NCBI GenBank assembly: GCA_963734535.1
Contig: CAVTHS010000010.1
Coordinates: 192,001-256,000 of the forward strand
DNA from: an uncultured Chloroflexia bacterium
GTDB lineage: Bacteria; Chloroflexota; Limnocylindria; Limnocylindrales; CSP1-4
Length of the DNA stretch: 64,000 nt
Direction: 5' to 3'
The stretch's first letter is position 1, and each line of letters opens with the position of its first letter. A program made the position numbers. Below are positions 30,501 to 33,500 of this stretch, piece after piece.

Positions 30501-33500
30501 GGGCGTCGAGCTCGCCGATCAGGGTGGCCGGGTTGACGACGACCCCCGGGCCGATCAGCGGCACGATGTGGGGGTAGAGCACGCCACTCGGCACGAGGTG
30601 GAGCTTGAAGACCTCCGAGCCCAGCACGATCGTGTGGCCCGCGTTGTCGCCGCCCTGGTAGCGGACGACCCAGCTGACCTGCCCGGACAGGAAGTCGGTT
30701 GCCTTGCCCTTCCCCTCGTCGCCCCACTGGAGGCCGACGATCACCGTGGCCGGCATGGCTGCTCCCCCGCGGAACCGGCCTTCGGGCAACAAAAAAGGCC
30801 CTCGGCGCGCGCGCCGGGGACCTGCCGGGTAGCCCCTCCCGCCCGGACGGCACCGCAGGCGCGGTGCCCGGCAGGGCACGAAGCCACTCGGATCATGGGG
30901 TGACCGAGATGCCAGCCTCGGACAATCGCTCGCTCCTTCGGGGGGGCCGGACGGCCCACGGCGTCGGGACCCGGGGAGTATACCAGCCGGCGTCCGGGGC
31001 ACCCAGGGTCCTCTCGCCCGCAGCGTCCGTTTGGGTCCCCGGGTCCGGCGGCGCGCGGCTTCCGCCGGTGCCTCCGCACGTGCCTCGCCCGGCCTGTGGC
31101 CTCTTGGCGGGTGCCTGGGCCGGCGGCCGCGACCGGGACTTCCGGCGCCCGGCGGAGTACCTTCGGTACGGGCGATTCGGCCTGTCCCGAGGGCTACGGT
31201 AGCAGGGTGATACGCGCCCTCAGCGGGTTGGGGTTGCTGGCTCCAATTGCCTTCCTGGCCCTTGCGCTCCTTCTGAGCCCCGGGGGTCCCTTCCTGACGG
31301 CTGGCCCCGCGGCGGTTGTCCTCGTGGCTGCGGCCGTCCTCGGCGCCAGCGTCACCGCGGCGATCGCGAGCATCTGGATCCGGGCGCACGTGATCCCGGT
31401 CGTGAACGCAGCGGAACGCCTCGCGGCGGGCGAGCTCACGACCCTCGTGCCGGCGCAGAACAGCGGCCTCGACGGCAGGCTGGGGCGTGCCGTCGCCCAG
31501 CTCGGCGCAACCCTCGCGACGACGCATGATGCGGCAACCGTCGACCGCCTGACCGGGATCGCCAATCGCCCGGCCCTCCTCGGCATGCTCTTCGGGGAGG
31601 TCGAGCGGGGGGCGCGCTACAACAGGCCGCTCTCCGTTGGCTTCGTCGACATCGACCTCTTCAAGGTGGTCAACGACTCCCACGGCCACCACGCGGGCGA
31701 CCTCGTCCTCCGGGGCGTGGCCGACGTGCTGCGGACGAACCTCCGCGCCACCGACATGCTCGGCCGGTATGGTGGCGAGGAGTTCATGCTCATCCTCCCC
31801 GAGACCGACGTGGAGGATGCCGCCTCGCTCTCCGAGAAGCTGCGCCTCCTCGTCGGGGGCACGCACTTCAGGATCGACGATGACCTGACCGTGGACGTGA
31901 CCGTGTCGATCGGGGTCGCCGGCGGAGTGGGGGGCAACCTCCACATCGACGAGCTCGTCCGGGACGCGGACGCCGCGATGTACTCGGCGAAGTCGCTCGG
32001 GCGCAACCAGGTCTACGTGTTCTCGGAGCCCAACGACGATGCCCGCATCCCCCGCGCGCCGATCTCCAGCGACGGCAGGGCGCGTGCGTCCGACGTCGCG
32101 CAGCTCGCGCGCCTGGCTGCCGAGCAGGCCCTCATCACGACCCTCACCCCCTATCCGAACCATCGGGGGCACGCCTCGGCGCTGATCGCCACGCTGTCGG
32201 TCGGGATGGCCCGCCGCCTGGGTCTGCCCGACGCGGAGGTCGACCGCGTCCGCCTCGCAGCCCTGCTCCACGACGTCGGCAAGCTGGCGCTTCCCGAGGA
32301 GATCCTCGAGAAGCCGTCCGCCCTCACCGCCGTGGAATGGCAATCCGTCGTCCAGCACCCGCGCATCGGCCAGGTGATCCTGGAACAGGCGTCCGTGCTC
32401 CGTGACGCGGTGCCGATCGTGCTCCACCATCACGAGCGATTCGGTGGGCACGGCTATCCCTACGGGCTGCGTGGGCTCGAGATCCCCCTCGGGGCGCGGA
32501 TCGTGGCCCTCGCGGATGCCTACGACGCGATGACCGCGGACCGCCCGTACAAGCGCGCGATGTCCCACGCGCAGGCGATCCGCGAGATCCAGCGCCACGC
32601 GGGAACACAGTTCGATCCCGACGTGGTCACGGTATTCTGCGATCTCTACTCGGCGGAGCGGCCGGTCGCGGACCTCGCGATCGTCCGAGGGATCATGGCG
32701 CCGACGCCATCCGCACGCCGGGCCGGCCATCCGATCCACGCCGCGAGCTGACAGGACGGACCCAGGCCCGTGCCGTCCGGGGAGTGGCGTCCCCCGGGTT
32801 GAGCCGCGCGCCGCGTCCCCGGGCCGATAAGGGAGCGTGCAGCGCCGGGTGCGCTCCGGGTGATCGGCGCCTGCGAGGATGCGCGTCACGGCGGGCCCGA
32901 CCGATCGTCCATCCGGACCCGCCGCCCGCCCGTCGAGTCGCCCGCCGCGCGAACGCAGGGCCGGACCGCGGAATCGGCCGGCCAGGAGGGATCGGATCGA
33001 TGAACAAGGTTCTGCTCACCGGACGTCTCACGCGCGACCCTGAGCTGCGCGTGCTCGCGAGCGGCAAGAACGTCACGACGTTCTCCGTCGCGACGAACGA
33101 GTACGTCGGCAACGGCAAGGAGAAGGCAGAGTTCCACTCCGTGGTCACGTGGGACCGGCTCGCCGACATCTGTGCCAGCTACCTCGGCAAGGGCATGACC
33201 GTCGCCCTCGAGGGCCGCATCCAGACCCGGCAGTGGGATGACGATCGCGGCACGCATCATTGGAAGACCGAGATCGTGGCGAACGCCGTGGAGATGCTCT
33301 CCGGCCGGCGGAAGAAGGACTACGCGGCGGACGCGCTCGCCGTCCAGGCGAACGGGCTCGGCGTCCAGCCGGCCGGCCAGGCCGACGACGACGAGGACGA
33401 CGACGCGGAGCCGAGCGTCGCACCCGGCGATCCTGAGCCCGAGGCGGCCGTCCTCGTCGCCTGACCGAGCACGCTCCGGCCGCGACGGGCGCCGTCCTCC

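Follow-up and report, generated by a model that had tools for sequence, protein, structure and literature searches.

A putative translation-dependent attenuator ahead of the purine operon in an uncultured Chloroflexota lineage

The purine operon of an uncultured Chloroflexia bacterium is preceded by a leader of about 215 nucleotides (nt) that, to judge from its conservation among relatives, is a cis-regulatory RNA with an intrinsic terminator. The leader lies on the minus strand of a 64,000-nt stretch of DNA (hereafter the window; GenBank assembly GCA_963734535.1, contig CAVTHS010000010.1, positions 192,001 to 256,000), ahead of purA, the gene for adenylosuccinate synthetase and the first gene of the operon (29452..30756, assigned by translation). 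We consider that it probably is a translation-dependent transcription attenuator of the kind known from pyrBI of Escherichia coli, and that it also hands ribosomes on to purA, because a strong intrinsic terminator has been kept inside a conserved chain of reading frames led by a Shine-Dalgarno (SD) sequence. The textbook control of purine operons is by a repressor (PurR) and by riboswitches for guanine, 5-aminoimidazole-4-carboxamide riboside triphosphate (ZTP) and phosphoribosyl pyrophosphate (PRPP), and an earlier inspection of the window (the sequence-only reading) had taken the leader for a divergent or new RNA that senses the purine pathway. Of that proposal an undescribed, conserved cis-regulatory leader has stood up, but no evidence of a ligand-sensing riboswitch has been obtained.

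Distribution and structure of the leader

Searches with PurA in relatives returned 17 loci from the window's genus whose leaders could be aligned, and 12 loci of the sister family, in small genomes, where the region upstream of purA is short and unrelated to the leader. When the leader was compared by BLASTN with 301 genomes of the family, its full length was found only in the genus and the terminator core (31 nt) in one other genus; the remaining short matches are located in coding DNA and were rejected as chance. The N-terminus of PurA was found in 125 of 131 family genomes, a tally that includes one unpublished genome. The set of purA upstream regions, which took in 23 returned loci and 40 further regions spread over the genera, came to 94 after deduplication and removal of the 12 sister-family loci, and a single architecture is common to nearly all of them. 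A covariance model, seeded with 55 cleanly cut leaders chosen from the 75 that anchors could delimit, matches 88 of the 94 regions exactly once and the other six (L037, L047, L096, L118, L125 and L129) not at all. Of the whole genomes searched with it, 97 of 108 from the family have a single copy, many of these genomes being outside the seed, and no copy was found in 42 from the sister family. In a draw of genomes from the class, the leader is present in 42 of 44 family genomes. A family that lies outside the window's order has it in 2 of 50 (L154 and L155, directly before purA in both), and three other families have it in none of their 49, 6 and 1 genomes. The two copies outside the order come from one genus, where 2 of 9 genomes have the leader; the other 41 genomes of that family have none. 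The genome that the window comes from has a single real copy. A weak full-length match on the minus strand (12707-12861; 24.7 bits, E = 0.0115) lies inside groEL (11912-13546) and was discarded as chance in coding DNA.

Some purA genes of the family have no leader upstream: those of L118 and L125, which belong to one genus, and those of L096 and L129. In L118 and L125 the region is shorter, led by an SD sequence, with a different hairpin and no terminator; L112, of the same genus, has the full leader.

The leader belongs to no Rfam family, in keeping with the sequence-only reading of an unrecognized element. Rfam 15 gave no match at the gathering score anywhere in the 64-kb window, and at E ≤ 10 the only matches between 30600 and 31300 were to Bcj11 (18.4 bits, where the gathering score is 49) and, on the other strand, to TCV_Pr, both attributable to chance.

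Its elements on the minus strand are as follows. The extended -10 element TGgTATACT, noticed earlier, is present at 30977..30985; the spacing of TATACT is constant in all 25 aligned leaders of the window's genus, which also retain the leader over its entire length, and TATGGT, TATCAT and TAGACT occur instead in other genera. Transcription would start at about 30971, some 7 nt after this element, and the leader, first estimated at about 210 nt, extends for the length given above up to the purA ATG at 30756. A consensus scanner called neither a promoter nor a terminator at the leader, because a match to the -35 element is absent and the terminator stem contains a mismatch. The first hairpin, H0 (GGGCC-GUCC-GGCCC, 30944..30957), shows compensatory changes in close relatives (GGGCCG/CGGCCC against GGGUCG/CGACCC, judged by eye) and is missing in some genera (L099, L102, L087). 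Hairpin P2 (30887..30908) is formed by CUCGG (30908-30904) and CCGAG (30891-30887), and hairpin P3 (30849..30868) has the sequence GGCACCGC-GCCU-GCGGUGCC and occurs in the minimum-energy fold. A G-rich, purine-rich tract, GGGCGGGAGGGG, followed by CUACCC (together 30827..30844) directly precedes the terminator; CUACCC is the version that the genus has of a family motif, GUCUAUCC. The intrinsic terminator (30791..30822) consists of the arms GGUCCCCGGCG (30822-30812) and CGCCGAGGGCC (30807-30797), which pair over 11 positions with one C·A mismatch, a CGCG loop and a run of six U residues (30796-30791).

Which of these hairpins are conserved? The terminator, described in the sequence-only reading as a GC hairpin with a U6 tail before purA, is conserved and covaries. 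Over the 88 leaders of the model alignment 87.8% of its cells are paired and changes on both sides are seen in 8 of its 11 pairs; its hairpin has a folding free energy of -12 kcal/mol or lower in 79 of the 88, and at least four U residues occur within 8 nt after the stem in 81. Within the genus (25 leaders) it is almost invariant, with 87% of cells paired. P2 also covaries: the family-wide helix is 76.9% paired over the 88 leaders, with both-side changes in all six pairs, one of which is UA in 37 leaders, CG in 25 and UG in 12. Within the genus 79.2% of the P2 cells are paired, and the minimum-energy fold contains it too. P3 had been noticed as an inner hairpin CACCGC/GCGGUG; it is really of 8 base pairs, between 30868-30861 and 30856-30849. 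As fixed columns of the model alignment it is only 47% paired, which is an alignment problem: by per-sequence folding (mean z a modest -0.91) a hairpin with at least five uninterrupted pairs stands in its place in 82 of 88 leaders, variable in sequence and length. This middle hairpin differs freely in length between leaders, for the most part by multiples of three bases. When a MAFFT alignment was scanned for covariation by a simple method, the scan recovered only the terminator and part of P3. Single-stranded positions are conserved as well, the GGG and UCUAUCC columns being 90–99% identical over the 88 leaders. By these comparisons the leader, its terminator and P2 are conserved with covariation, as relatives had been expected to show, and the relay of reading frames described below is conserved too.

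Folding energy contributes nothing to this picture, since the leader has no extra stability over shuffled sequences (z = +0.86 for 236 nt and +0.29 for 183 nt). Hairpins alone prove little in G+C-rich DNA when the fold is no stabler than shuffles, and thermodynamic stability was dropped as evidence in either direction. A switch between two pairings had also been proposed. Its 9-bp stem, CCUGCCGGG (30875-30867) with CCCGGCAGG (30829-30821), is present but not conserved (48.2% paired in the genus), and when it was tested together with a hairpin CCGAGG/UCUCGG, 329 of 500 shuffles paired as well; the competing pairing of GUGGCUUC with GGGGCUAC is not conserved (53.5% paired), and 397 of 500 shuffles are as good. 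On this evidence the stem and its competitor are accidents of the window's sequence. The hairpin CCGAGG (30921-30916)/UCUCGG (30909-30904), likewise described before, is present and 79.3% paired in the genus, but it shares its 3′ arm with P2, which is the pairing that covaries; the genus alignment cannot distinguish the two hairpins. CCGAG is in fact a direct repeat (30921-30917 and 30891-30887) flanking CUCGG (30908-30904), and either copy can pair with it. The upstream copy falls in codons 2-3 of the first reading frame described below, and the downstream copy just past the point where that frame meets the second, so that a ribosome-dependent choice between two hairpins is possible.

Other pairings were tried and rejected. 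That of the 5′ end, GUCCUCGAA, with codons 2-4 of the first reading frame, CUCGAGGA, is no better than in shuffles (mean z +0.09; z below -2 in 4 of 66), and those of the P2 loop with the G tract (CCCGUG/CACGGG) and with GUCUAUCC were seen by eye only, with no covariation. Fixed-offset scans of the 5′ end, the first reading frame, the G tract and the terminator, which are crude and mix two registers, revealed no long-range helix, and neither such scans nor a duplex-energy test found a partner for the motifs GCUCGAGGA, GUCUAUCC and CCCGUGAG.

A relay of reading frames through the terminator

The leader contains two putative upstream open reading frames (uORFs), recognized by translation. uORF1 (30893..30925) has the SD sequence GAAGGAG (30933..30939), of which GGAG is invariant in the 25 genus leaders, and 7 nt after it a UUG (30925-30923), from which ten codons lead to a UGA stop; the peptide is LSEAGISVTP as printed, with Met expected from UUG. 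uORF2 (30741..30896) begins at an AUG that overlaps the stop of uORF1 and has 51 codons. The stop of the one and the start of the other (AUGA, 30896-30893) are contained in the loop of P2, UCACCCCAUGAU. From there uORF2 crosses P3, the G-rich tract and the terminator, and it stops 13 nt into the purA gene. An SD sequence belonging to purA itself, GGGGGAG (30762..30768), is present in the window's genus; in many other genera an overlap of stop and start codons is found at the purA start in its place. The purA start has no SD-like sequence in 28 of the 58 leaders with a stop overlap, as against 8 of the 36 without.

How general is this arrangement? A rule requiring an SD-like sequence, a start codon 4–10 nt later, 6–16 codons and a UGA preceded by A or G identifies uORF1 in 65 of the 94 leaders, with GGAG or GAGG as the SD-like sequence. 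Exactly ten codons are present in 53 of these 65, the start is UUG in 52, and Pro precedes UGA in 44. Of these leaders, 29 have the end of the overlapping RUG frame (R being A or G) at -2 relative to the purA start (UGAUG or UAAUG), 3 have it at -3, 8 at -4, 2 at -7 or -10 and 20 at +13; in 3 the frame runs on. The motif RUGA, scored independently of the rule, occurs in 81 leaders, and in 48 of them the RUG frame ends between -10 and -2 of the purA start; random starts within ±30 nt end there in 17.9 ± 3.5 leaders, with a maximum of 29 in 1000 draws. Where there is a stop at -4, -3 or -2, it falls in the RUG frame in 45 of 51 leaders.

The upstream end of the relay can be tested in the 77 leaders that have both a start codon at the conserved column (UUG, GUG, or AUC shifted by one base) and the RUGA motif. 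The start is in frame with UGA in 65 of them, giving two ORFs, and in frame with RUG in 12, giving one fused ORF; in none of the 77 is it in the third frame, which would break the relay. Nor does the relay stop ahead of the terminator in any of 88 leaders, and 83 of them have its final stop between -10 and +13 relative to the purA start. The distance from RUGA to GUCUAUCC was counted in the 67 leaders that have both anchors (27 were left out, among them the window's own with its CUACCC), and it is 59, 62, 65 or 68 nt in 59 of these, so that the length of uORF2 changes mostly in threes. Of the two leaders outside the order, L154 has a single fused ORF running from UUG to UGAUG and L155 has two ORFs joined at AUGA. 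Because three stop contexts each match their own frame and both fused and split forms occur, the relay points to repeated independent events. A chain of frames ending at the start codon of purA is, in our reading of these alignments, the signature of a translated attenuator.

In four leaders (L076, L081, L092 and L107) about 200 nt of similar sequence stand between the terminator and purA. uORF2 is open throughout this insert (81–90 codons), and its stop still overlaps the purA AUG (UGAUG; UAAUG in L081).

The conserved start position is occupied by AUC (as AUCG) in 26 of 88 leaders. Eighteen AUC leaders have RUGA; the AUC is in the UGA frame in 10, in the RUG frame in 8 and in the third frame in none. 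This suggests that part of the window's family initiates translation at AUC.

Proposed mechanism and alternatives

An outline of how such a leader might act is as follows. Transcription would begin about 7 nt past TGgTATACT, and a ribosome would load at GAAGGAG/UUG, translate the ten codons of uORF1 and halt at UGA, mostly after a Pro codon, within the P2 loop. It would step back by one base to the overlapping AUG (in most genera a GUG), restart there and translate uORF2 through P3, the G-rich tract and the terminator as far as the purA start. If the ribosome is near the polymerase when the terminator is synthesized, the 5′ arm would be masked, no hairpin would form and the 13-kb operon would be transcribed; if it lags or has never loaded, the hairpin and the U6 run would end the transcript near 30791. 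Termination would be the default, favored by three delaying features: the weak start codon, the stop codon that mostly follows Pro, and the restart in the P2 loop. In most genera the stop of uORF2 overlaps the purA AUG (UGAUG), by which translation of purA would be coupled to the relay, and the relay probably also drives purA translation. That ribosomes read the uORFs and that the terminator works we infer from the sequence, and the same holds for the identity of the signal. The signal is probably the supply of purine nucleoside triphosphates (NTPs), and it would fit this that the tract before the terminator is the most purine-rich 12-column window of the alignment (0.74 against 0.50 overall). 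This tract might be a pause site for the polymerase: at low ATP or GTP the polymerase would be slow in it, so that the ribosome catches up and read-through follows, and at high purine NTPs it would outrun a ribosome delayed by the weak start and the stop/restart.

An RNA library from a related strain (about 95% identity) contains a contig that covers 30253-30943 and spans the terminator into purA. The same library gives no cover upstream of 30943, where DNA runs continue (Logan contigs). These observations are compatible with the predicted promoter and with read-through, as a weak hint from a single study whose contigs show neither 3′ ends nor levels.

Several observations weigh against this reading. 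In 5 of 88 leaders the relay has no stop within the 150 nt of purA examined, four of these being in the purA frame. In DNA of 70% G+C open frames are cheap: the commonest uORF2 frame (+1 relative to purA) has no stop from RUGA to purA in 72 of 76 leaders, but the two alternative frames have none in 59 and 60 of the 76. Frame openness alone is weak evidence, and the weight lies on the relations between the frames, the position of the final stop and the length changes in triplets. The start codons (UUG, AUC) are weak ones. The genomes are related, not independent, so that all counts overstate significance, and the model alignment, in which none of 500 shuffles reaches the observed pairing and slid controls fall to 31–50% paired, is fitted to its own structure and leans towards it. 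In the tract before the terminator, only 0.74 purine, no recognizable pause consensus was found, no sensor was identified, and no conserved antiterminator helix was found by scans that are crude and could miss a register-shifted one. Moreover, GCUCGAGGA is conserved yet translated in two different frames in different genera, the variation of GUCUAUCC is non-synonymous and the loop CCCGUGAG is nearly invariant; part of the conservation, as these alignments indicate, clearly acts at the RNA level, beyond coding. Five leaders of three genera (L121, L122, L123, L126 and L128) keep the uORF relay and the overlap with purA in the absence of a terminator hairpin, and two of the window's genus (L006, L008) have a weakened terminator stem and no U tract. 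The relay may have a role in translation alone.

Could the leader be a riboswitch after all, in which an aptamer for a metabolite of the purine pathway chooses between terminator and read-through and the open frames are a by-product of high G+C content? We regard this as unlikely. The position ahead of the whole de novo purine operon and the covarying hairpins would suit it; the near-invariant single-stranded stretches CCCGUGAG, CACCUUCGA and GGG..GUCUAUCC are not accounted for by coding; the frames outside the relay are often open too; and an RNA that matches no known family would have to be a new one. However, a start codon in the third frame is seen in 0 of 77 leaders, the relay terminates at the purA start in 83 of 88, the type of stop at that start tracks the uORF2 frame in 45 of 51, and length changes come in multiples of three. 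As to structure, the 9-bp stem and its competitor lack conservation, some genera do without the 5′ hairpin, crude alignment scans detected neither a multi-helix junction nor a long-range helix, and the fold is no stabler than shuffles. The riboswitch reading is unsupported, because the pairings of its switch are unconserved, its 5′ hairpin is sometimes absent, its middle hairpin is free in length and the leader is spanned by reading frames.

It is quite unlikely that no metabolite is sensed at all, so that the relay only feeds a purA start poor in SD sequences and the hairpin is a constitutive partial terminator or a stabilizer overridden by translation. This would suit the five leaders, just mentioned, that keep the uORFs and the UGAUG overlap without a terminator, the 28 of 58 overlap leaders in which purA has no SD-like sequence, and, weakly, since contigs give no levels, the RNA contig of the related strain that spans the terminator into purA. 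Nevertheless, 79 of 88 leaders keep a strong terminator, with its compensatory changes, within a translated frame, which is hard to explain without a termination function, and the window's genus has its own purA SD sequence yet keeps both relay and terminator.

In another explanation, uORF1 would encode an arrest peptide that stalls at its stop together with a small molecule, as TnaC does, the stall gating the restart at uORF2 and thereby setting termination. A Pro-UGA end terminates slowly. The constant length (exactly ten codons in 53 of 65 uORF1), the Pro in last place in 44 of 65 and the C-terminal pattern (T/S)-(F/V)-(A/V)-P, kept even in AUC variants of eight codons, speak for such a peptide, as does the UGA stop in 65 of 65, though the search rule demanded UGA. 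It is very unlikely, however, since uORF1 runs into uORF2 with no intervening stop in 12 of 77 leaders, the N-terminal part is translated in two frames in different genera, which places the constraint on the nucleotides, and 21 of the 65 peptides end in R, Q, A, T, L or S instead. A bolder version of our own proposal would nonetheless make the ten-codon uORF1 an arrest peptide sensing a purine metabolite at its Pro-UGA stop.

Least of all do we expect protein-mediated attenuation of the PyrR or TRAP kind, in which a purine-sensing RNA-binding protein on the single-stranded motifs would favor or prevent the terminator: GUCUAUCC, CCCGUGAG and GCUCGAGGA are near-invariant in over 35 genera, and the scans found nothing that pairs with them, but neither a candidate protein nor a repeated binding motif was found, and this reading would not account for the frame relay.

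What would the attenuator mean? A search of the literature on purA and purine leaders and on attenuation, covering titles and abstracts outside subscription journals, found no ribosome-dependent attenuator for purines. We put it forward, tentatively, that the leader is the first translation-operated attenuator for de novo purine synthesis, in which a race of polymerase and ribosome measures purine NTPs and the relay also feeds purA. If so, the principle of pyrBI, by which a nucleotide pool is sensed through such a race, would have evolved for purines in an uncultured lineage of high G+C content; two overlapping uORFs with a stop and restart in a hairpin loop would be a new architecture; and AUC would probably be a start codon in part of the family. 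Riboswitch-like leaders in G+C-rich genomes should be checked for conserved frame relays before new RNA classes are named.

The operon downstream comprises 11 genes over about 13 kb, down to 17616, in the order purA-purD-purB-purC-(putative purS)-purQ-purL-purF-purM-purN/H, the other genes after purA being named by Pfam matches of ORFs. At its end a single open frame of 756 codons (17616-19886, minus strand) contains Formyl_trans_N, MGS and AICARFT_IMPCHase domains; either purN and purH are fused in it or, the DNA being rich in G+C, the ORF listing has run two neighboring genes together. Divergent from the purA promoter region, a gene on the plus strand (31096-32751, with a true start that may lie near 31204) encodes a GGDEF and HD-GYP (HD_5) protein, which belongs to the turnover of cyclic di-GMP; no link to the purA leader was seen. 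The nearest PurA sequences in named genome records, from Acidimicrobiales, other Actinomycetota and metagenome-assembled genomes of Chloroflexota, are at most 59% identical.

Comparison with known systems

Riboswitches of the purine pathway comprise those for guanine and adenine and for ZTP, and the ykkC subtypes for PRPP and guanosine tetraphosphate. Like the purA leader, they precede purine biosynthesis genes and use a terminator as expression platform. Unlike them, the leader is spanned by conserved frames, and it has no Rfam match to any of them even at E ≤ 10.

Attenuators of amino acid operons (trpL, hisL, leuL) consist of a short leader ORF led by an SD sequence, hairpins and an intrinsic terminator before the operon, and all these parts have their likeness in the purA leader. 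In the trp/his type, however, the leader ORF stops more than 20 nt before the terminator, whereas the ORF chain of the purA leader crosses it, and no conserved 2:3 antiterminator was found here. The peptides of uORF1 (LLEEGATFAP, LSEAGISVTP and others) and uORF2 contain no conserved runs of regulatory codons. TnaC has 24 residues, ends in Pro-UGA and acts on Rho-dependent termination. The purA leader resembles tnaC in a short leader peptide with Pro-UGA and in a ribosome deciding downstream transcription; it differs in that its peptide has 10 residues, its terminator, some 70 nt downstream, is intrinsic, and translation would restart at the stop on a second ORF.

A parallel in the proposed nucleotide signal is the leader of mgtCBR in Salmonella, for which it has been proposed that ATP is sensed, through conserved adenines, by coupling of polymerase and ribosome on the mgtM ORF (PMC3641672). 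mgtM is like the purA leader in that sensing of a purine nucleotide by coupling is proposed and in that the nucleotides of the ORF are conserved, not the peptide. The sign is the opposite of what a purine biosynthesis operon needs, since high ATP promotes transcription of mgtCBR, and mgtM uses alternative stem-loops and conserved adenines, whereas neither a conserved alternative helix nor an adenine cluster was found in the purA leader.

The closest likeness is to pyrBI of E. coli, whose terminator lies inside a leader-peptide gene of 135 bp and whose hairpin is suppressed by ribosomes close to the terminator (PMC4824070). The purA leader differs in belonging to the purine pathway instead of the pyrimidine pathway and in having UUG or AUC starts; it has no U-rich pause cluster, at most a moderately purine-rich tract. 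Unlike that of pyrBI, its ORF is split into uORF1 and uORF2, joined at AUGA or GUGA in a hairpin loop, and in most genera there is an overlap between the final stop codon and the start of purA, which would couple translation. In other respects the two correspond. Each has its own promoter, in the purA leader a predicted one with its -10 element at a fixed distance, and a leader ORF that begins at its own ribosome-binding site and passes through an intrinsic terminator placed close upstream of the first gene in a pathway of nucleotide synthesis. In the purA leader the putative ORF chain covers the terminator in 88 of 88 leaders (in the window, uORF2 at 30896-30741 over the terminator at 30822-30791). 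In both, the ribosome would block the hairpin physically, so that a conserved antiterminator is not needed.

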